IMG/VR virus record: IMGVR_UViG_2563366968_000003
Source: a virus
Lineage: Duplodnaviria; Heunggongvirae; Uroviricota; Caudoviricetes
Direction: 5' to 3' (one strand)
Length of the DNA: 44,977 nucleotides
Both the position numbers and the translations under genes were made by a program. A model generated the notes under the pieces. That model did not search any database and was not told the origin of the DNA. It saw only the letters and a program-made list of their open reading frames with translations. Shown here piece by piece: positions 7,938 through 38,875 of the stretch (position 1 is the stretch's first letter; every line of letters starts with the position of its first letter).

Positions 7938-10513
7938 CGTCCACCTCCGGAGAACAGGCCACCATCACGCATCTGTGTCTGAATTTCATCGCGGGCACCC
8001 TTGCGGGCCATGTCATACACTGCTTTCATCATCTGTGGACCTGGCAGACCATTCGTACCGTCGTTCTGAATCACCACGTTGTTGTTCTGCTCAAACCTGA
8101 TACCCTCTGAACGCCGCATTTGCGCCGGACTTCCGGTGCCACCGACATAACCGCCGGTGGCATAGCCGCGCATCAGCCGGTAGAGATTTCCCACGCCAAT
8201 CCGGCTGGTTGCCTCCTTCGTGAAGACAAATTCACCACGGTGAACAATCCCCGCTGGCTCATATTTGCCGCCGGTTCCCGTAAATCCTCCGGTTGCAAAA
8301 TGGAATTTCGCCGCAGCGGCCTGAATGGCTGTACCGCCTGACGCGGATGCGCCGCCACCAACAGCCCCGCCAATGGCGCTGCCGATACTCCCGACAATCC
8401 CCACCATTGCCTGCTTAAGCAGAATTTCTGTCATCATGGACAGCACGGAACGGGTGAAGCTGCGCCAGTTCTGCTCACTGCCGGTCAGCATCGCCGCCAT
8501 ATTCTGTGCAATACCATCAAAGGTCTGCGTGGCTGCACTTTTTACCTGCGACATACTGTCCGTGGCGCTCTCTTCCCACTCACTCCAGCCGGACTTCAGG
8601 CCTGCCATCCAGCTCCCGCGAAGCTGGTCTTCAGCCGCCCAGGTCTTTTTCTGCTCTGACATGACGTTATTCAGCGCCAGCGGATTATCGCCATACTGTT
8701 CCTTCAGGCGCTGTTCCGTGGCTTCCCGTTCTGCCTGCCGCTCAGTCAGCCCCCGGCTTTTCGCATCAATGGCGGCCCGTTTTGCCCGTTGCTGCTGTGC
8801 GAATTTATCCGCCTGCTGCGCCAGCGCGTTCAGGCGCTCCTGATACGTAACCTTGTCGCCAAGTGCAGCCAACTGGCGTTTGTACTCCAGCGTCTCATCT
8901 TTATGCGCCAGCAGGGATTTCTCCTGTGCAGACAGCTGGCGACGTTGCGCCGCCTCCTCCAGTACCGCGAACTGACTCTCCGCCTTCCACAAATCCCGGC
9001 GCTGCTGGCTGATTTTCTCATTTGCTCCGGCATGCCTCTCCAGCGTCCAGAGTTCAGCCTGAAGCGTCAGCAGGGCAGCATGAGCACTGTCTTCCTGACG
9101 ATCGCCCGCAGACACCTTCACGCCGGACTGTTTCGCCTTTTTCAGCGTCGCTTCATAGTCCTTTTTCGCCGCCGCCATCAGCGTGTTGTAATCTGCCTGC
9201 AGAATTTTCCCGTCCTTCAGTGCCTTGTTCAGTTCTTCCTGACGGGCGGTATATTTCTCCAGCGGCGTCTGCAGGCGTTCATAAGCCTTCTGCGCCTCTT
9301 CGGTATATTTCAGCCGTGATGCCTCAGACTCGGCCCAGTCCTTTGCTGCCATCTCTCTGGCCTTTTCAAGATCGGCCTGCAACGTGGCGGCTGAAAGCCC
9401 AAGTTGCGCATTCGCTCTGTCCTCCCATGCTCCCCGGAGATTGGCAAGAAATGCGGATGTTTTACCGCGCCGGTGGCTCCGGCTCTGATACCACTGCCAT
9501 TTTTTGTCCGCCTCATCAAAAGCCTTTTCTGCTTTCTCCAGCATTTCCCGGGCAGTGTCCGGGCGACCAATATCCAGCACCGAATCCCACATGGATTTGA
9601 ATGCCCGTGCTGTCCTGTCTGCCCAGGTCTCCAGCGTGCCCATGTTCTCTTTCAGGCGGCGGGTCTGGTCATCAAACCCTTTCGTTGCGGCCTCGTTCGC
9701 CGCCTGCAATGCCCCGGCTTCATCTCCGGAACGCTGCAACTGAGCAACATACGCAATCTGCTCCGCCGTCACGTTATGGAACTGACGTGCCATCGCTGTC
9801 AGTCCCGACGTCGGGTCAGTGGTCAGCTTCCCGAAGGCTTCAGCGACCTTGTCCACCTCCACGCCGGATGCAGAGGAGAAACGCGCCACACTCTGGCTGA
9901 TCGCCTCAAACTGCTCACCACCACGCACACCGGCATTCACCAGCGCCGTCAGTGACTCGCTGGTCTGGTTAAACGTCAGCCCTGCCGCCTGCCCGGCTCT
10001 GGACAGGGCCAGAATACGATCTGCCGTCAGTCCCGCCTGATTGCCGGACAGGACCAGCGTTTTGTTGAAATCGGACAGGGTTGAGTTGCCCTGATACCAG
10101 GCATACGCCAGCGCACCGGTCGCCACCGCCAGCGAGGTGGCCCCCACCATCGGCAGGGTGATCGCACCGGCAAGCCCCCTGAACATGGGGATCATCCCGC
10201 CGAAGGAGTCCTTAACCTGACCACCCTGTTGCAGCAGGATCAGCCACGGACTTTGCCCGCCTGCAAGCTGCGTGGCCACGTCGGTGAACTGTGCAGGCAG
10301 CATACGCATGGCGGCTTTATACTGCCCGACGGAAATCCCCGCTTTCTGTGCAGCCAGCGCCTGTCGGCTCAGCGACTGTTCAACGACTGCCGCTGTTTTT
10401 TTCGCATCACTTTCCGTACCGGAAAAATGACGCCTGACTCTGGCCATCTGCTCGTCAAATCTGGCCGCATCCAGACTCAAATCAACGACCAGATCGCCTA
10501 CCGGTTCAGCCAT
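7934..10513 (-). CDS. H: Tail tape measure protein H
   Basis: 859 aa, coiled-coil rich, Gly-rich C-terminus; between G-T and M. Confidence 0.9.
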   Translation of the reverse strand: MAEPVGDLVVDLSLDAARFDEQMARVRRHFSGTESDAKKTAAVVEQSLSRQALAAQKAGISVGQYKAAMRMLPAQFTDVATQLAGGQSPWLILLQQGGQVKDSFGGMIPMFRGLAGAITLPMVGATSLAVATGALAYAWYQGNSTLSDFNKTLVLSGNQAGLTADRILALSRAGQAAGLTFNQTSESLTALVNAGVRGGEQFEAISQSVARFSSASGVEVDKVAEAFGKLTTDPTSGLTAMARQFHNVTAEQIAYVAQLQRSGDEAGALQAANEAATKGFDDQTRRLKENMGTLETWADRTARAFKSMWDSVLDIGRPDTAREMLEKAEKAFDEADKKWQWYQSRSHRRGKTSAFLANLRGAWEDRANAQLGLSAATLQADLEKAREMAAKDWAESEASRLKYTEEAQKAYERLQTPLEKYTARQEELNKALKDGKILQADYNTLMAAAKKDYEATLKKAKQSGVKVSAGDRQEDSAHAALLTLQAELWTLERHAGANEKISQQRRDLWKAESQFAVLEEAAQRRQLSAQEKSLLAHKDETLEYKRQLAALGDKVTYQERLNALAQQADKFAQQQRAKRAAIDAKSRGLTERQAEREATEQRLKEQYGDNPLALNNVMSEQKKTWAAEDQLRGSWMAGLKSGWSEWEESATDSMSQVKSAATQTFDGIAQNMAAMLTGSEQNWRSFTRSVLSMMTEILLKQAMVGIVGSIGSAIGGAVGGGASASGGTAIQAAAAKFHFATGGFTGTGGKYEPAGIVHRGEFVFTKEATSRIGVGNLYRLMRGYATGGYVGGTGSPAQMRRSEGIRFEQNNNVVIQNDGTNGLPGPQMMKAVYDMARKGARDEIQTQMRDGGLFSGGGR

Positions 10514-30159: not shown

Positions 30160-30357
30160 CGGTTTTCTCCGGTGGCACGGTGTTACTCAGCGGGAGTTCA
30201 GCCCCGCGCAAGATTTTTGATTCTATTCCGGCACCGTCCAGAACTTCAAACGCGTTGAAAATAAAAACAAAAACCCGCCGAAGCGGGTTAAGTGCGGGTG
30301 CGTTGAGGATGCCTGCCACATCAGAGGTGGCGAGGGATTTCTCCCCCGCCGGGTCTC

Positions 30358-30513
30358 TTACTCCTCAGGTTCGTAAGCTGTGAAGACAGCGACCTCCGTC
30401 TGGCCGGTTCGGATTCGTACCTCGCAGAGGTCTTTCCTCGTTACCAGTGCCGTCACTATGACGGTTAAACAGATGACGATCAGGGCGATTAACATCGCCT
30501 TTTGCTGCTTCAT
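30358..30513 (-). CDS. hokD: Hok family type I toxin (51 aa); not in ORF track
   Basis: Manual translation MKQQKAMLIALIVICLTVIVTALVTRKDLCEVRIRTGQTEVAVFTAYEPEE. Confidence 0.85.
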   Translation of the reverse strand: MKQQKAMLIALIVICLTVIVTALVTRKDLCEVRIRTGQTEVAVFTAYEPEE

Positions 30514-30584
30514 AGCCTGCTTCTCCTGTCAACGCAAAGCAGAAGTGTCACCTTCGGTGCGAAACAGAGATGTCATGCTTTGGT

Positions 30585-30872
30585 TCAGAGAATGCGTTTG
30601 ACCGCCTCGCTATATACTTCCGAGCGTTCTCTTTTCCCAACAGAAATCACGAAAACGACAACTTTCTCGTCTATAACCTGGTATACAAGGCGATAGCCTG
30701 AAGACCGGAGCTTAATCTTGTAACAATCAGGCATACCACGGAGCTTGTTTGCTTCAATCCGGGGTGACTCAAGTACTTCAACCAGCTTCTTTTTCAACTG
30801 TTCACGTACCGTCGAGCCCAGCTTTCGCCATTCCTTTAGTGCCCGCTCGTCAAAATCCAGAAAATACGCCAT
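30585..30872 (-). CDS. relE: RelE mRNA interferase toxin
   Basis: 95 aa MAYFLDFDERALKEWRKLGSTVREQLKKKLVEVLESPRIEANKLRG. Confidence 0.9.
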   Translation of the reverse strand: MAYFLDFDERALKEWRKLGSTVREQLKKKLVEVLESPRIEANKLRGMPDCYKIKLRSSGYRLVYQVIDEKVVVFVISVGKRERSEVYSEAVKRIL

Positions 30873-31111
30873 CAGAGTTCATCCAGCGTCACACGTACTG
30901 GCTTAGGATTACGAAGCCGTTCTTTCACTATCTCCACAAGTTCAGCATCTTCATCACTCAGGAGTGTCTGTTTGAACGGCAAGCGTTCATTGTCAGCGAT
31001 ATACTCGAGCATGAGACGAAGCGCTTCAGAAGGAGTTACACCCATTTTTTCAAGCGCGGCGTAAGAACGCGCTTTAAGTTCATCGTCAATACGCAGGTTA
31101 ATGCTACCCAT
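30872..31111 (-). CDS. relB: RelB antitoxin
   Basis: 79 aa MGSINLRIDDELKARSYAALEKMGVTPSEALRLMLEYIADNERL; overlaps relE start. Confidence 0.9.
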   Translation of the reverse strand: MGSINLRIDDELKARSYAALEKMGVTPSEALRLMLEYIADNERLPFKQTLLSDEDAELVEIVKERLRNPKPVRVTLDEL

Positions 31112-31123
31112 GTCTTACACCTC

Positions 31124-31148
31124 TTGTAATTACAAATGTCATTACAAG
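31124..31148. promoter_or_regulatory. relBE operator: perfect palindrome TTGTAATTACAA plus adjacent half-site copy
   Basis: TTGTAATTACAA at 31124-31135 and TGTCATTACAAG at 31137-31148, immediately upstream of relB. Confidence 0.55.
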
Positions 31149-31441
31149 TATCGCACTACAACATGCTTAGGGCAAGTCACGAAGGAAGTCAGAAAGTAGT
31201 CGTAAGAACGGTGATCACTGTCCGCTTTGTGCCAGGAGCAGCCATTGCTAAGTCCATCCTGTATTGTGCAGGTCAGCTCGTTTTTAAAGAGTCCGGCCAT
31301 CATCTTACTGGTACAGACACCATATACTTTGTGACGGTCAGGCTACATATGCACAACTCAACTTATTCATCTATTTTTTGCTTTAGCATGTCAGTGTTGC
31401 TTTCTCGTCGGCGGGTGAGCGGTGACCTGACCTGTCGATAA
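31136..31441 (+). CDS. ydfV: YdfV-like hypothetical protein (weak call)
   Basis: 101-aa ORF in the position and with the length of K-12 ydfV; no recognisable motifs. Confidence 0.35.
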   Translation: MSLQVSHYNMLRASHEGSQKVVVRTVITVRFVPGAAIAKSILYCAGQLVFKESGHHLTGTDTIYFVTVRLHMHNSTYSSIFCFSMSVLLSRRRVSGDLTCR

Positions 31442-31593
31442 AGGAACGTAACACGTTTTATGCAACACCCGCATGCGGCAGAAAATTATTGCCGAACGTT
31501 TACCCCTGTCAACAAGCTTTACTTTCTGAGGCGCGCCAGCCCGCGAGGAAAACAATCTGAACATCAAACAATTAATGACACAAGAAATACGAT

Positions 31594-31620
31594 TAAAGAT
31601 TTTTTTGTGCATGCCGATAG
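31594..31620 (+). promoter_or_regulatory. Sigma-28 (FliA)-type promoter upstream of flxA
   Basis: TAAAGATTT-N11-GCCGATAG resembles the sigma-28 consensus TAAAGTTT-N11-GCCGATAA; 24 nt upstream of flxA. Confidence 0.45.
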
Positions 31621-31643
31621 TGCTTTTTTAAAAGGAGAAATCT

Positions 31644-31976
31644 ATGTCTGTCACAATTCAGGGAAATACCTCAACCGTTATTTCAAACAACTCCGCCCCG
31701 GAAGGAACATCAGAAATAGCCAAAATCACAAGACAAATTCAGGTGCTGACTGAAAAGCTTGGGAAAATCTCATCGGAAGAGGGGATGACGACACAGCAGA
31801 AAAAAGAAATGGCTGCATTGGTACAGAAGCAAATTGAAAGCCTCTGGGCTCAACTGGAGCAGTTGTTAAGGCAGCAGGCAGAGAAAAAGAATGAAGACGC
31901 GACAGTTCAGCCTGATAAAAAAGAAGAGAAAAAAGACGATACAAATACCGCTGGCACCATTGATATTTACGTCTAA
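31644..31976 (+). CDS. flxA: FlxA-like protein
   Basis: 110 aa MSVTIQGNTSTVISNNSAPEGTSEIAKITRQIQVLTEKL; AAGGAG ribosome-binding site. Confidence 0.85.
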   Translation: MSVTIQGNTSTVISNNSAPEGTSEIAKITRQIQVLTEKLGKISSEEGMTTQQKKEMAALVQKQIESLWAQLEQLLRQQAEKKNEDATVQPDKKEEKKDDTNTAGTIDIYV

Positions 31977-31990
31977 GTGACAGCCGTATT

Positions 31991-32016
31991 GTGGCCCTCA
32001 TCGGGCCACTTTTCGC
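31991..32016 (+). terminator. Rho-independent terminator after flxA
   Basis: GTGGCCC-TCATC-GGGCCAC followed by TTTTCGCC. Confidence 0.5.
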
Positions 32017-32412
32017 CATCAGCCTTTTCTTTAAAGACATATTATCTTTGTATCATTTCTGATAGTTAACATTACAAGATATAAGTAATGGACGCACTCC
32101 CAATTAGTCTATTTAAATCGCCACGAGTTTAACTGACAACCCATGATCAATTATGAATTGCAACTATTTCTGTAGTCACTTTTGTGGGGACAGTCCACAA
32201 AACTGCCAACTTCCGCTTCTTGCTCTTAGCGGACATTAGCATAGGCTATTTACCATAACGCCTCATTACGCGCACCGCCCAGACTGACTCAGCGCGTTTC
32301 TGGCATATCCCCGGTAAAACAAGTAACAAACCACCCGAAAATGAACACCAGAAACGCGACTTAAGAATCTACCCTATGAATGGATATGCACTCAACCGAA
32401 TCGATCTTGGTT

Positions 32413-33726
32413 TCAATCTTTTTTATCGGGATCAGGCTTCTTTTTAGGTAACTTCGGGGGCTTAACTTGCTGATGACTTTGCGTTCGGCGCGTAAGCCAG
32501 GGATGGTCAGCTTTAGGTTTAACATAGTATTTTGAGCGTAAATCAATACGGGCATTATCCACTCGTTCATGGACACTCTTTTCATCATCCAGTGGTATAG
32601 GCTCCGGGCCATCAACATACTTTTCCCAGCCCAGCGCTTTCCCGTCATACAGAACGTTAATTTCACCGTCAAAGTTCTCGCATACAGTAACAACCGAATG
32701 CCTAAGTCGATATCCCCGGCCCTCACTGCGTACCTGAAACGCACTGCTTTTGTACTGGAAAGTGAGATTTTTAGACAGAACGCGCTTCGCCTGTAGGCTG
32801 AAGATATAACCCAGTTCCTCTTCAGAATGGTGCACATCAAGATGAGCATTATCAGTAGTACGAGGCGACGTAGCGAACCGGTTGTTATAGGCTTCAATAA
32901 AGGTCGGCAACCATGCATTTGCTGTTTCAATATCACTGATATTCTGAAGCCGCATTTCTTTGACCAGCCTGTCCTGTAGTGTCTGATTGGCGCGCTCTAC
33001 CCGCCCTTTTGCCTGCGGGCTGTTGGCATGGATTGGCTCGATGCCCAGTGTCTTTATCGCACGAGTGAACTGGGTCAGCTCACCTTCCCGCTCTGGGTTA
33101 TTTACCCTGAATATACTGTGTCTATCAGAGTAGAGAGCGAGCGGTACGCCATGATCATTAAGGTAACCCCGGAGGGTTTCCATGTAAGCCCGAGTTGTTT
33201 CAGCAGGCACAAAACGCAACGCCATCAACGCACTGGTGGCATCATCAATGAAAACGATCAGTGTACATCTGGGGCCTCGATTTTCAAACCAGTCATGAGG
33301 TGAGCCATCAATCTGGATCAGTTCACCGTAAGATGGTCGTCGCATGCGGCGTTGATATATACGGGCAATTTTACGACGGCGTTCACGCCATAACCCCTCT
33401 TCTATCATCCACTTTCTGAGAGTTTCAACGGATAAAGATAAACCGTGTATCTCGCGCAATTTTTCGCACGCAAACGTAGGTCCAAAATCAGCGTAACGGC
33501 CTTTGAGGAGTGAAATTACTGTTGCTCTGAATTCAGTAGAAAAGGAATTATTAGGACGCTTTCCACGTCGGTGGGAAACCAGACCAGAAGGCCCTTCATT
33601 TCTATACCGTTGCACCAGACGTTTAACCTGCCGAATAGAAATGCCAATGCGTGCCGCAGCTTGTTCCTGAATAATCTGAAGTCGGTGGAGTTCCTTATGA
33701 CTCATCGTAACAGTCTCTTTGATCAT
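32413..33726 (-). CDS. DDE transposase/integrase of the rve superfamily with N-terminal helix-turn-helix (IS481/ISNCY-like); element boundaries not resolved
   Basis: 437 aa; DDE residues in IQIDGSPHD, LALYSDRHSIF and KGRVERANQTLQDRL; N-terminal HTH region. Confidence 0.7.
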   Translation of the reverse strand: MIKETVTMSHKELHRLQIIQEQAAARIGISIRQVKRLVQRYRNEGPSGLVSHRRGKRPNNSFSTEFRATVISLLKGRYADFGPTFACEKLREIHGLSLSVETLRKWMIEEGLWRERRRKIARIYQRRMRRPSYGELIQIDGSPHDWFENRGPRCTLIVFIDDATSALMALRFVPAETTRAYMETLRGYLNDHGVPLALYSDRHSIFRVNNPEREGELTQFTRAIKTLGIEPIHANSPQAKGRVERANQTLQDRLVKEMRLQNISDIETANAWLPTFIEAYNNRFATSPRTTDNAHLDVHHSEEELGYIFSLQAKRVLSKNLTFQYKSSAFQVRSEGRGYRLRHSVVTVCENFDGEINVLYDGKALGWEKYVDGPEPIPLDDEKSVHERVDNARIDLRSKYYVKPKADHPWLTRRTQSHQQVKPPKLPKKKPDPDKKD

Positions 33727-34060
33727 GAAAAATCCCCCAGAGAATTGTCTGGGGACATTTTAGAATGGTTCAAAGGGGACATTACAGCTTGGTGTTAACA
33801 ATAGCCTGCTTCTCCGTGCCTTTCGGCACGTAAGAGGCTAACCTACATGTGTCTAGCATGAAATTGGCCTCAGATTAATGTTAAGCGTCTTGCAGGACGC
33901 GTAATGTTAACTGGGGCTTTTCTCTATCTGCCGTTGGTGTCCATGCCCGAGGCAGATAGCCTCAAGCACCCGCAGTCATTCTACTTAACTAAGATTTCCC
34001 CGCAAACCGTTTTTGTCCAGCACAGTAAATATCCAACTAAACCAATGGAGTTCGCTGTAT

Positions 34061-34240
34061 TTACCGCCAGTATTCAATGCACATGACCGCCATGAACACC
34101 CCTAAAAAAAGGGCATTTATATATCCAAATATTAATATCAAAACATCAACTTTTTCCATATACCTTGCTGTGAAGATGATGGGCATACATGATGCGAACA
34201 ACCAGAACGCAACAAACAAAAACTGCAATGCGTTTTTCAT
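34061..34240 (-). CDS. Unannotated small two-helix membrane protein (59 aa)
   Basis: AGGAGG 4 nt upstream of ATG; MKNALQFLFVAFWLFASCMPIIFTARYMEKVDVLILIFGYINALFLGVFMAVMCIEYWR. Confidence 0.45.
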   Translation of the reverse strand: MKNALQFLFVAFWLFASCMPIIFTARYMEKVDVLILIFGYINALFLGVFMAVMCIEYWR

Positions 34241-34351
34241 TATTCCTCCTACAATCAATGTGCAATTACATTTAAACACACCTCAATTTGGCCGGACATA
34301 TAAATATCTAAACCAGAAAAAATCACTTACATAGCGTTACAAACTCTTTAG

Positions 34352-35546
<1,195 letters not shown>

Positions 35547-36591
35547 TTAGTCTAAAGGTTCATCGTAAAACATTCCCCATACTTATCAGTCCGTTCCGCG
35601 CCAGGTAGCTCATTGCCTTATCTGGCAACCTGTAATCAGGTTTCCGCTTTTTCAGTTGGCTGGTCGTTTAACCGACATAGTTAATCCATTAATCTAGTTG
35701 CCGGATGTTGGTGGATTTTCGCGTTTTAGTTGTTCATAAAAGTGCACAGCTTTAACCAGTTCTTCTGATGTAACTGGGACTGGTGAGGCAGTGAATAAGG
35801 CCTGAATTTGATAGTTCGGCCTGTCGTTACAATCCTCTTTTTTCGGTACATATTTCCAGTCACCAGACCACTACTTCCCCTGAAAGTCCGTAACGCCTTT
35901 TTTCACGTAGCGATATCGCCATGCCACTGGTTTTGCTTGCCCCGCCGTTTCATGCCCTTCCTGATAATTAATCTCGCTCATTCATCGCCCCACTCATCAC
36001 AATATGCTTCGACCGGAGTTTTTCCCGCTTCATAGTCATCACGCTAGGATTCGACATCAGCAGCACTTCCACCGCGTAACTCACCATAGTCCATTAATAG
36101 TTCATCCCGCTCTTCAAAACTGATGTTATATTTAGCTGAACAAAAATCAGCCACTTTGTTCTTCCTCATCGTCTTTTATTTCGTGGTATGAGTAATTGCA
36201 GTAGTTAAAGAAAATTTCTTATGCTCCGTCATGAATTTCCTCAGGTGTTGCGTCATCGTCCACTTCGAATACATCCTCAAAATCTCCACCAGCTATTCCC
36301 GTTTCAATAATAATTTTGAACTTTCGCATTTCACTACCGCCCTTTCGGGCGGCCTCCTGATGTTCTGAGGGTGCAGAAATCCATCCGGTTAAGGATTAAA
36401 TTTTATTTACAGAACTGAATTTAATTATTCAGATATACGTATCTGTAGCCTTACGAATCTACTCACTGGATGCCTCTTTCATAAAAATAATCCAGTGGGT
36501 TTTATCGTTTTTTCCCTGTTCGTTGACAGATAACAGGTTTTCTGTCTGTCAGTGCCAGAATCTGGCTTACCGGTATTTGCGTTTCATTCCA

Positions 36592-36948
36592 TTAAAAAAT
36601 CAGAACGCCGTGCGGCCTCAACACCCGAAAGGCTTCTTTAAATCTCTGTCGCGAATCATCACGCCAGGCATCTTTATTCAGCCGTCCATATTTCTTTCCC
36701 ATCCAGGCGTTATCACCAACACTCTCAAGATGCGGAGGGTCTAATACAACCATCGAAAAAGATGCGTCTGCAAATGATAATGCACGAAAATCTGCGATAA
36801 TGTCAGGGCTGATAATCAAGCGTCTCCCATTGCGTAATGTGTATCCTTCTTTTCTGATATCGCTGAATATCGCCCGTTCGTCAGACTTATCGAACCAGAA
36901 CATGCGGCTGCCACAGCACATATCAAGAATGGTTGCCGGTGCACTCAC
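36592..36948 (-). pseudogene. SAM-dependent (probably DNA N6-adenine) methyltransferase, N-terminal 118-aa fragment
   Basis: Motif I-like DMCCGSRMF and motif IV-like DPPH; ORF ends without the expected C-terminal part and is followed by ORF-free DNA. Confidence 0.5.
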
Positions 36949-37367
36949 TGCGCCACGTCCTGAAAATTACCCTGATAGAAAGCCAGTATGCGCTGCATAA
37001 CTTCGCTCTTCCGGCACTCGCGACAGATTATGTTTAGGCGACTGTCGTAGCGACGTATTTCTCCGTCAGGTGATGACCAGATAAGGTCCGGATCAACCAC
37101 AGCAGGTTTCTTCACCTTTGCCCTCGAGAGTTTTTTGCGGGCGTTTTGCCAGTCCTTACGCGCCTGTTCAGAGGGGAATAACCCGTAGCCGGAGTTGTAT
37201 ACATCGCCACTGGCTACCAGCTCTCTGGCAAGAACGCTCATCAGATATCTAGTCGCACCTGTTTTAGCTTCCAGTTGCCGTAACGTCTCACGGCCGCTCT
37301 GGCGCACGAGTTCCACCACCTGCCATTTAATTTTTTCCCGCTCTTCTTGTGTAAAAACTTTTGCCAC
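36945..37367 (-). CDS. Hypothetical protein (140 aa), possible winged-helix fold, immediately after the O-like gene
   Basis: ORF in the position normally held by the helicase loader; no match to lambda P that I can recognise. Confidence 0.5.
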   Translation of the reverse strand: MAKVFTQEEREKIKWQVVELVRQSGRETLRQLEAKTGATRYLMSVLARELVASGDVYNSGYGLFPSEQARKDWQNARKKLSRAKVKKPAVVDPDLIWSSPDGEIRRYDSRLNIICRECRKSEVMQRILAFYQGNFQDVAQ

Positions 37368-37407
37368 AAGTCCCCCTTAAAATTACCTCATGACCTGAAA
37401 TCAACAC

Positions 37408-38427
37408 TTATCCTCTGAAACCAGGCGGAATTTCTGTATCCGGTTCAGAAATATGATTAACACAACGCTGTACAGGTGAACGTCCCAGGCGGATGACCAG
37501 TTCGTCCCATTTTTCGCGGAGCTTTGACGGGCTCATGATGTTTTTTACCCAGAATGGATCTCGCTGAACCCGACCAAACATTTCGCAAATTTGTCTGTGG
37601 CTTCTGCCATCCAGCATCCGCATTGTGCGCACGTCATTGGCCCAGGCAGTCCAGTTAGGCTCTTTTGGTCGCATGATCTCGCCATCATCACTGGCTGCCT
37701 GTTCGTAGAGACCCACGATCCGCCCCCAGATCCACTGCGCACACGCCAAATCCTCCCTGCTACCCCACTGGCGTTTTTTCGCACTAAACACAACCGCGTC
37801 GGAGTTCCGGGTTAAAAAATCCTGTTCAGTCGTCTGCGGGTCCGGTTGCGAAGCTTCCGGACGAAAAGTGTTTTTATTCTCTGTAGTAATCTCTGTTGTA
37901 TTCTCTGTAAGATCATCAGGCCATTTTGACCCGATGACATTGGGTCGTTTTGAACCAATGGAGCGTTTCATTTTGACCTCTTCCATCGTGTCATTTTGAC
38001 CTGATGGAGCGGCGCATTTTGAACCGATGGATTCGCTCAATTTGCCACCATCTAAAAGCTCGCTCCCATAGTTGATCGTGTAGAAATTGGTCATATCGCG
38101 CTTTGATTTATTGAGCTTTTCACAACGCAAAAGCCCCAGCGTTTTCAGACTTGCAAACGCGCGCTTTAACGTTGACTCTGACCAGAATGGGAACTGTTCC
38201 AGCCATTGTTCCGTTGTGTTATAAATCCAGCGAACACCATCACATTCCATGCCGGAGTTGGTATCTCTCAACCAGTAGTGCAGTTGTTGCAAAACAATGG
38301 CTTCGTTTAAGCCAATTTTCATTGCCAGCTGCGTGTTTATAACCAGTGGGCGTTCAGCAAAAAGAAGGCTCATAATTCCATCCAGCTTTTTGTTGGTATT
38401 GCTGTCGATACGCAAGTTTGAAAGCAA
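37408..38427 (-). CDS. Replication initiator, lambda O-like (C-terminal domain similar to O; iterons inside the gene); start may be TTG at 38427 or ATG at 38373
   Basis: C-terminus AAQWIWGRIVGLYEQAA...WANDVRTMRMLDGRSHRQICEMFGRVQRDPFWVKNIMSPSKLREKWDEL parallels the recalled lambda O C-terminus. Confidence 0.7.
   Translation of the reverse strand: MLSNLRIDSNTNKKLDGIMSLLFAERPLVINTQLAMKIGLNEAIVLQQLHYWLRDTNSGMECDGVRWIYNTTEQWLEQFPFWSESTLKRAFASLKTLGLLRCEKLNKSKRDMTNFYTINYGSELLDGGKLSESIGSKCAAPSGQNDTMEEVKMKRSIGSKRPNVIGSKWPDDLTENTTEITTENKNTFRPEASQPDPQTTEQDFLTRNSDAVVFSAKKRQWGSREDLACAQWIWGRIVGLYEQAASDDGEIMRPKEPNWTAWANDVRTMRMLDGRSHRQICEMFGRVQRDPFWVKNIMSPSKLREKWDELVIRLGRSPVQRCVNHISEPDTEIPPGFRG
37922..38060. 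repeat. Origin-type iterons: about six direct repeats of CATTTTGACC-like sequence at ~23-bp spacing inside the O-like gene
   Basis: Repeat starts near 37922, 37946, 37969, 37992, 38015 and 38039; AT-richer DNA follows. Confidence 0.6.
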
Positions 38428-38875
38428 TTGCTTTTTCTATAAGTTCGTCAGTTTCACGATCCACTACGGCAGGATCAGCAAAAAGCAGTCCGGACTCCAC
38501 CACATCGCCATATTCTTTGTTTAACCCGGCGATCATGCACGTGATGCTTTTTCCGTCAGTAATTTCACGATACAACCTGAAATCATTAATCCGGATAGCC
38601 TCCATAATTGCAGGCACTAGCGCCGTGAACTTTTCACGCTTATCCCTGGTGTCGATAGCCTTCCAGCGTTCAAATATCTTCACTCGATTAACGCCAAGCG
38701 CTCGCTGATCAATCGCGCCACCTTCATATGTGACACGCTGAACATCGATGTTCGGGCGCTCTTTCAAAGCCCAGAATGCTTCAGTGATTAATATCGTCGC
38801 CTGCTCCTGTGTCATTCCTGGTCGACATATCCAGGCATCCAGAGCCTCACGAGCCTGTTCAGGAGTGATTTTCAT
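38354..38875 (-). CDS. Hypothetical protein in the cII position (possibly YdaT-like)
   Basis: 173-aa ORF between the cro-like dicC and the O-like gene. Confidence 0.45.
   Translation of the reverse strand: MKITPEQAREALDAWICRPGMTQEQATILITEAFWALKERPNIDVQRVTYEGGAIDQRALGVNRVKIFERWKAIDTRDKREKFTALVPAIMEAIRINDFRLYREITDGKSITCMIAGLNKEYGDVVESGLLFADPAVVDRETDELIEKAIAFKLAYRQQYQQKAGWNYEPSFC

Follow-up and report, generated by a model that had tools for sequence, protein, structure and literature searches.

Insertion sequences (IS) of the IS1202 family encode a DDE transposase with two extra conserved aspartates between D1 and D2 and a glutamine, rather than lysine or arginine, at position E+7 (bioRxiv 10.1101/2022.12.17.520857). 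The family comprises three classes of target duplication, has members that carry passenger genes, and includes a subgroup that targets dif-like sites (bioRxiv 10.1101/2022.12.17.520857; PMC10132070). ISEsa1 has been published as 1,609 bp long, with repeats that match at 15 of 22 positions and no detectable duplication (PMC10132070, Table 7); its transposase falls with that of ISCARN112 in a separate small subgroup, with 41% identity to ISAjo2 and 27% to IS1202 (PMC10132070). Here we compare these systems with an ISEsa1-type element in a 44,977-nt stretch of DNA (hereafter, the window, meaning the whole stretch; IMG/VR record IMGVR_UViG_2563366968_000003), which is an Escherichia coli Qin-type lambdoid prophage. 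A preliminary description of the window had reported, at 32040–33900, a transposase of unresolved family without detectable terminal inverted repeats, and had suggested that the element has unusual ends, is truncated, or carries passenger DNA.

We conclude, with a probability of about 0.88, that window positions 30527–33800 are a single 3,274-bp ISEsa1-type transposon of the IS1202 family (ISNCY), inserted between the ribosome-binding site and start codon of hokD on one side and the sok/mok leader on the other. The 15-bp sequence ATAGCCTGCTTCTCC is directly repeated on both sides, at 30512–30526, where it takes in two bases of the hokD start codon as well as the ribosome-binding site, and at 33801–33815. 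In two uninterrupted prophages, L008 and L009 (L-numbers denote fetched comparison loci, together 1.28 Mb), 30527–33800 is absent, ATAGCCTGCTTCTCC occurs once, and the sok leader directly follows the hokD start codon. Such a comparison had been proposed in the preliminary description as the way to define the inserted segment and its duplication, and it supplies both. Starting with its very first base, the sequence to the right of the element (33801 onward) aligns with DNA lying immediately upstream of hokD in thousands of E. coli genomes; at 33800–33971 (minus strand) lies the orphaned sok antitoxin and hok-mok leader, adjoining the left end of the element, with a full-length match to Rfam RF01794 (104.1 bits against a gathering threshold of 59, E = 1.3e-23). 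Because the duplication, the empty sites and the Rfam match coincide, the position of the element is exact, with the sok/mok leader on one side and the ribosome-binding site and start codon of hokD on the other.

The left inverted repeat (IRL, 33775–33800) falls inside the interval first described, and the right inverted repeat (IRR, 30527–30552) lies 1.9 kb to the left of it. IRL begins TGTTAACACC at 33800 and IRR begins TGTCAACGCA at 30527, giving termini of the form TGT...ACA, and the two repeats match at 19 of 26 positions (16 of the first 22). On the transposase strand the IRL end region (33751–33800, minus strand) reads TGTTAACACCAAGCTGTAATGTCCCC and contains two ATGTCCCC repeats. The IRR end region (30527–30576, plus strand) reads TGTCAACGCAAAGCAGAAGTGTCACC (26 nt) and contains two motifs that resemble transposase sites, GTGTCACC at 30545 and GATGTCAT near 30568, the second about 23 bp further in, mirroring the layout of IRL. 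The outer end of IRL is fixed at 33800 because three unrelated flanks diverge there: the window and plasmid loci L003 and L004 have a common sequence up to ...GGTGTTAACA and part immediately after this position. The ends are therefore conventional rather than unusual, and the element is whole in the window; it is the K-12 copy, described below, that is truncated.

The earlier finding that 32040–33900 holds no inverted-repeat pair was sound, as a partner for IRL sought in 32100–32420 in both orientations gave best ungapped matches of only 11/22 and 14/26, and a right end near the transposase stop codon, sought in the plasmid copy as well, was not found. A query of E. coli genomes with the joined flanks, the left boundary being set at 32207, returned no contiguous empty site because that boundary was wrong; the same query exposed the hok leader as the right flank and so led to the true ends. 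Two inverted pairs built on the palindromic GTTAAC, one a perfect 12-nt pair (32064–32075/33901–33912) and the other of 10 nt (32062/33793), were considered as ends and rejected: both fall outside the homology boundaries and have no duplication, and 33801 onward is prophage backbone.

The conserved core of the element (32208–33800, minus strand), made up of IRL, the transposase gene tnp and a cer-like site, is the part called ISEsa1 in plasmid annotation. It is 98.1% identical to plasmid copies L003–L006 and L010, and the homology ends at 32208 and 33800. This boundary, together with the published length and the missing duplication (PMC10132070), could be taken to mean that only the 1.6-kb core is mobile, with a degenerate or atypical right end and no duplication, and that relBE, ydfV and flxA are mere neighbors. 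We consider this extremely unlikely, as there is neither an inverted repeat (best match 11/22) nor a duplication at 32208, whereas all of 30527–33800 is missing from the empty sites and the 15-bp duplication surrounds it. Moreover, none of roughly 30 enterobacterial loci contains a 1.6-kb copy with a right end of its own, and units of 6.09 kb have moved in their entirety: in L013 (an Enterobacter plasmid) and L019 (Kluyvera), copies of 6,093 bp differ at four bases (99.93% identity), yet have unrelated flanks and different duplications. Since near-identical copies stand at unrelated loci, the whole unit is mobile, and we retain the 3,274-bp transposon as the unit in the window.

Read on the transposase strand, the order of parts is IRL, tnp, cer-like site, hairpin, a cargo slot (flxA and ydfV), relB-relE, and IRR. 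The suggestion of passenger DNA thus held for relE, relB, ydfV, flxA and the cer-like site, all on the left, but not for the membrane-protein open reading frame at 34061–34279 on the right, which is prophage backbone, because 33801–34351 is present at 96.6–98.5% identity in element-free prophages. The conserved right module (30527–31239, minus strand) comprises IRR, relE, relB and the relBE promoter region; it is 96–99% identical in elements with other cargo (L013–L030) and 98.8% identical in plasmid L010. Within it, the relE toxin gene (30585–30872, minus strand; Pfam ParE_toxin) is annotated as relE in L001 and in K-12 and has an identical protein accession on plasmid L010, and the relB antitoxin gene (30872–31111, minus strand) matches Pfam RelB at 112 bits. 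relE reads outward through IRR toward the target gene, hokD (30358–30513, minus strand; Pfam HOK_GEF, 82.9 bits), which now lies downstream of it. The insertion thereby put hokD behind relBE and orphaned sok, and co-transcription of relBE with hokD is the known relBEF arrangement (as cited in PMC5120126).

The transposase itself proved assignable. The 437-aa open reading frame (32413–33726, minus strand) had been described as an rve-type protein with a helix-turn-helix (HTH) N-terminus, which the N-terminal Pfam matches HTH_32, HTH_29 and HTH_28 and a weak rve_3 match corroborate, and as belonging to an insertion element, which its score of 456.4 bits against the NCBIfam model NF033594 transpos_ISNCY_2 (cutoff 250) bears out; the IS481, IS21 and IS3 models score far lower. 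Apart from a 27-bp gap, the DNA of tnp is 97.9% identical to hundreds of plasmid genes annotated as "IS1202-like element ISEsa1 family transposase". Its alignment contains QIDGSPHDW, FIDDATS, LYSDRHS and GRVERANQTLQ, with the catalytic D, D and E and a Q at E+7. With the ISNCY_2 score, the identity to ISEsa1-annotated DNA and the catalytic signature in agreement, we assign the transposase to the IS1202/ISNCY family, ISEsa1-type. Other family traits are found alongside the HTH-DDE model match and this signature, namely imperfect repeats of about 22–28 bp with a 5'-TGT start and an ACA-3' end, and a duplication, here 15 bp, that falls in one of the family's length classes (5–6, 15–17 or 27–28 bp). 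The element resembles transporter IS in that relE, relB, ydfV and flxA lie inside the terminal repeats and whole cargo-bearing units have moved. It does not belong with the dif/xrs-targeting ISAba32 (ISAjo2) subgroup, whose members insert beside a dif-like site, 5 bp away from its XerC arm and with IRL facing it, and make 5–6-bp duplications; here IRL adjoins the sok leader and the duplication is 15 bp. In the mechanism that we propose, the DDE transposase would bind terminal and subterminal sites at both ends and would make cuts staggered by 14–16 bp.

In a scan covering one genome per species, 79 loci were recovered, and these reveal a common design. Two parts are conserved, the core (element positions 1 to about 1,590) and a 712-bp module of relB, relE and IRR, while the cargo between them varies, in elements of 2.6–9.1 kb from Enterobacter, Citrobacter, Pseudocitrobacter, Huaxiibacter, Superficieibacter, Kluyvera, Leclercia, Pantoea, Shigella and others. 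The layout occurs with duplications of 13–16 bp at more than 12 loci (for example in Enterobacter, Citrobacter, Kluyvera, Leclercia, Scandinavium and Shigella), and each relative has a duplication of its own sequence. Their cargo includes a cation-diffusion transporter with cytochrome b561, arsenic resistance, LysR regulators with transporters, and nested insertions of the IS110 and IS30 families; on Klebsiella and Enterobacter plasmids a 12.8-kb element carries chrBA and ncrABCY. In the Scandinavium clade, which is about 70% identical, the ends and the core are kept, and the pair beside IRR encodes a TacA-like antitoxin and a GNAT toxin (L029 16952–17881, L043 13275–14203), transcribed inward whereas relBE is transcribed outward. 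The conserved feature beside IRR seems to be some toxin-antitoxin pair. relBE, or tacAT in this one clade, would stabilize the element or its replicon.

A more distant relative in Hahella, 62% identical, is a plain IS of 1,449 bp present in at least seven copies. It has the IRL TGTTAGCCC and the IRR TGTCAACCC, two ATGTCCCC-type sites per end, and duplications of 15–16 bp in seven copies. Because this simple IS shows the same features, it validates both the relE-proximal end and the duplication length of the window element. It also bears on whether a 1.6-kb IS might have mobilized its neighbors through a chance surrogate right end near relE, by one-ended transposition like that of ISEcp1. Cargo does lie on the IRR side only, and IRR is imperfect (19/26); nevertheless the terminal TGTCAAC and the two-site layout of the window IRR are those of the authentic IRR of the Hahella IS, and the relE-proximal end is conserved as CTGCTTTGCGTTGACA in every element, even in the Scandinavium clade with its other toxin-antitoxin pair, whereas chance ends should vary from one mobilization event to the next. 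We regard a surrogate end as very unlikely and treat IRR as a true end of the transposon.

Insertions of the IS110 and IS30 families are found independently at nearly the same point (L013 at about 11536; L015 and L028 at about 11532), which corresponds to element positions 1,606–1,610, just past the hairpin that follows the cer-like site. These positions may be an insertion hotspot. The published ISEsa1 length of 1,609 bp coincides with this point, where copies diverge through cargo and nested IS insertions, and this divergence may explain that length. The preliminary description had allowed that a known IS with defined ends might account for the locus; ISEsa1 is indeed matched and its left end lies within the interval described, but as published it misses the real ends. 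The window element and the plasmid genes annotated as ISEsa1 share about 98% DNA identity across the transposase and the 1.6-kb core and have a common left end; the differences are that the right end of the window clade lies beyond relBE, that its members make 13–16-bp duplications, and that the unit is 3,274 bp in the window and 4.3–12.8 kb in relatives, against the 1,609 bp of the published description. Together these comparisons suggest that the published ISEsa1 covers only part of the mobile unit.

The hok/sok setting recurs well beyond the window. IRR adjoins the start region of HokD, HokE-like and plasmid Hok genes and of at least three further subtypes, and IRL at hok sites adjoins a conserved leader that consists of TAGCCTCTT and a hairpin ending in GCAA or GCAC. 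The offset from TAGCCTCTT is 25–26 nt and the orientation is constant. A plasmid hok locus is represented by three records, an empty site (L011) and junctions at IRL (L012) and IRR (L010), each compatible with a 15-bp duplication, GGAGAAGAAGGCCAT; L010 has lost an additional 291 bp beside IRL. We counted about nine independent insertions at hok and a similar number at other sites, several of which end in GGCAA or GGCAT right before the duplication. From this pattern we infer a strong, oriented target preference for hok loci, in which the transposase would favor, in one orientation, the conserved hairpin and the GCAA motif that immediately precede the ribosome-binding sites of hok genes.

The same recurrence could arise without target choice, if an old insertion had been spread by homologous recombination, which the conserved hok leader could support, or if insertions at hok had survived because they are harmless or beneficial; the many insertions elsewhere, and the origin of all E. 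coli Qin copies in a single event, are compatible with this. We think it unlikely, given that the hok genes beside IRR are of very different subtypes, that flanks show no detectable similarity where the elements are 99–99.9% identical, that each site has a duplication made of local sequence, with a constant offset from the leader hairpin and a single orientation throughout, and that two to three elements are stacked at one hok site in Leclercia (L027). Targeting of hok remains our preferred reading of the pattern.

Three further arrangements at hok sites were observed. In Leclercia sp. EMC7 (L027 6627–17130) two members, 85% and 71% identical to the window element, lie head to tail, 10 bp apart, followed by a third IRL-like stub, TTTTAACACGAAGCTGTGATGTCC; they resemble the tandem ISKpn21 arrays reported at dif. 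In viral contigs L120 and L125, IRR adjoins a point inside the hokD coding sequence (...CTGCGAGGTACGAATCCGA...), which looks like a deletion of the first half of hokD. In Citrobacter portucalensis (L026) the sequence left of IRL at 9927, GGCCTTCTTCTCC, is a hok start region in the orientation usual beside IRR, an arrangement that suggests an inversion or recombination between two copies.

Directly after the tnp stop codon the element carries a site resembling ColE1 cer. The cer-like core (32248–32276, minus strand) consists of GGTGCGCGTAA (XerC arm), a TGAGGCG spacer and TTATGGTAAAT (XerD arm), and its accessory region (32277–32410, minus strand) has an ARG-box-like motif, TGCATATCCATTCATAG, just past the tnp stop. 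At up to five mismatches this core is the only dif-like site in the window, and across the 1.28 Mb of loci every enterobacterial element has such a site in the corresponding place, with conserved arms and variable spacers, and none lies anywhere else; the plain IS relatives among these loci have no such Xer site. The XerD arm TTATGGTAAAT is that of ColE1 cer (table in PMC2410131), and in Scandinavium both arms are identical to those of ColE1 cer. Accessory homology to ColE1 cer is detected in the window (E = 4e-7) and in L043 (E = 7e-17), and non-coding DNA from thousands of small Col-type plasmids likewise matches the 125–135 bp between the tnp stop and the core. As in ColE1 cer, then, there is a XerC arm, a 7–8-bp spacer, an identical XerD arm, about 125 bp of homologous accessory sequence and an ARG-box-like motif; the cer type has arms 6–8 bp apart with accessory sequence on the XerC side, of which about 125–135 bp align here against about 180 bp expected. 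The difference from ColE1 cer is that this predicted site appears inside a transposon, on chromosomes, prophages and plasmids. The site would recruit XerCD, and probably ArgR and PepA, and would resolve multimers or cointegrates. The possibility that this Xer site had been the insertion target, in the manner of ISAba32, was rejected, because the site is internal and it is hok and sok that flank the element.

The preliminary description had also drawn attention to an octamer in three direct copies. In the window, only the copies at 32185 and 33750 are exact matches to TGGGGACA; that at 33774 reads AGGGGACA. A total of two is at chance level, because 1.5 are expected in 45 kb and 40 of 100 shuffles contain two or more. 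The copies at 33750 and 33774 nevertheless belong to a real feature, in that ATGTCCCC (transposase strand) at 33751–33758 and 33775–33782, 24 bp apart, forms the subterminal repeats of the left end, and a pair of this type is present at both ends of the multicopy Hahella relative; these octamers are subterminal transposase-site repeats. The copy at 32185 looks like chance: it lies in cargo DNA, 16 bp beyond the conserved core, and is not kept in related elements. As a candidate element end it was rejected on these grounds and for its direct orientation.

Among 5,426 complete E. coli genomes, the hokD/IRR junction is present in 1,164, the IRL/sok junction in 678, and an uninterrupted hokD-type locus in 4,020. 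The copy in the window is probably impaired, because a 27-bp in-frame deletion in tnp (33640–33670, residues ~20–28) removes nine residues, ESINRHITQ, from the N-terminal HTH in the DNA-binding region of the transposase; in Shigella flexneri (L022), whose element occupies an identical insertion site, the gene is undeleted and encodes the 446-aa form. K-12 retains IRR, relBE, ydfV, flxA and the cer-like site, together with the final 61 codons of tnp. This transposase stub (window 32413–32597; K-12 locus L002 4175–4359) has been annotated as ydfW (49 aa), which corresponds to the last 49 of the 61 retained codons. A 6.0-kb deletion (window 32598–38597) fuses the stub to ydfX and dicC and takes out IRL, the sok leader and several prophage genes. 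We accordingly read the K-12 copy as a deletion remnant.

The E. coli/Shigella-specific cargo (31240–32207, plus strand) includes the 3' part of ydfV, flxA and downstream hairpins, and is swapped for unrelated cargo in other elements. Both flxA (31644–31976; Pfam FlxA) and the ydfV open reading frame (31136–31441) are on the strand opposite to tnp. ydfV begins in the conserved relBE promoter module and extends into the specific cargo. It may not be a real gene, because it matches nothing in Pfam and other elements lack a counterpart. A hairpin, TCCGCT...AGCGGA (32212–32233), closes the core and is kept as GTCCGCT..AGCGGAC in relatives. Elsewhere in the window, a complete 1,195-bp IS5 stands at 34352–35546 with a 4-bp duplication, TTAG (34348–34351 and 35547–35550), and is missing from the otherwise identical strain W5-6 (L001). 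Just downstream of hokD, a sub-threshold match to Rfam isrK lies at 30268–30349 (minus strand; 25 bits against a gathering threshold of 50, E = 0.023).

Among described systems, the transporter IS tISKpn21, tISKpn65 and tISRel10 likewise have an IS1202-family transposase, TGT/ACA ends and passenger genes within the repeats. They make 5-bp duplications, insert at dif-like sites 5 bp away from the XerC arm, and carry a single open reading frame of unknown function, whereas the window clade has duplications of about 15 bp, an internal toxin-antitoxin module and cer-like site, an exchangeable cargo slot and a preference for hok. The ISTde1 subgroup of the IS1202 family, set beside the window clade by description only, likewise makes long duplications, of 15–17 bp. 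Tn3-family transposons with toxin-antitoxin modules, reportedly described by Lima-Mendez and colleagues in 2020, are said to combine a constant pair with variable cargo in the same way; they would differ in having an unrelated transposase and their own resolvase, where the window clade has a borrowed host Xer site.

Several observations weigh against the account given here. Mobility is read from sequence comparison. The window tnp lacks the nine HTH residues and the element occupies a single locus in E. coli, so that the window copy may be a fossil. The published ISEsa1, known to us through its published description, is 1,609 bp long with 15/22 repeats (PMC10132070). About half of the independent insertions are outside hok (L015, L023, L024, L029, L043, L083 and L122), which makes the targeting a preference and not an absolute rule. 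The binding of Xer, ArgR and PepA is a prediction from homology. Finally, Xer-mediated exchange of cargo, which we considered and rejected, is not an obvious cause of cargo variation because the cargo junctions lie 30–55 bp past the Xer core, varying by element, and not in the spacer.

Pedersen and Gerdes, in 1999, reportedly put the inactivation of hokD down to a major rearrangement; an element of the window type would be that rearrangement. Integration of relBE into hokD was noted by Ramisetty and Santhosh in 2016, as cited in PMC6379469. In the accessible literature on relBE, hok, ISEsa1 and ISNCY in a transposon context we found no description of the element, the vehicle, its ends or its duplication. 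The transposon that emerges belongs to the IS1202 family, carries cargo alongside a constant toxin-antitoxin module, has a cer-like site built in, and prefers hok loci; it accounts for the classic K-12 locus. More tentatively, and at somewhat less than even odds, we suggest that the enterobacterial ISEsa1 clade consists of self-stabilizing transposons that home to hok loci. There the transposase would recognize the hairpin and GCAA motif closing the sok/mok leader and would insert in one orientation, the outward-reading relBE promoter would capture the hok toxin, Sok control would be lost, and the cer-like site would recruit host XerCD, ArgR and PepA and so resolve multimers of the replicon or cointegrates formed in transposition.

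The transposon offers a concrete mechanism by which relBE, a much-studied toxin-antitoxin system, came to precede hokD in E. coli, and it revises the annotation of K-12, where ydfW becomes a transposase remnant and flxA and ydfV become transposon cargo. Since the reference description of ISEsa1 seems to cover the mobile unit only in part, a metal-resistance transposon on Klebsiella and Enterobacter plasmids may escape annotation pipelines. The locus also raises the ideas that type I toxin-antitoxin loci may serve as homing sites for a DDE transposase and that a transposon may carry a borrowed Xer resolution site beside an addiction module. If homing to hok is correct, the K-12 relBEF operon, flxA and ydfW would be relics of one such event, and the same vehicle would now be spreading chromate, nickel, arsenic and cation-efflux genes among plasmids.

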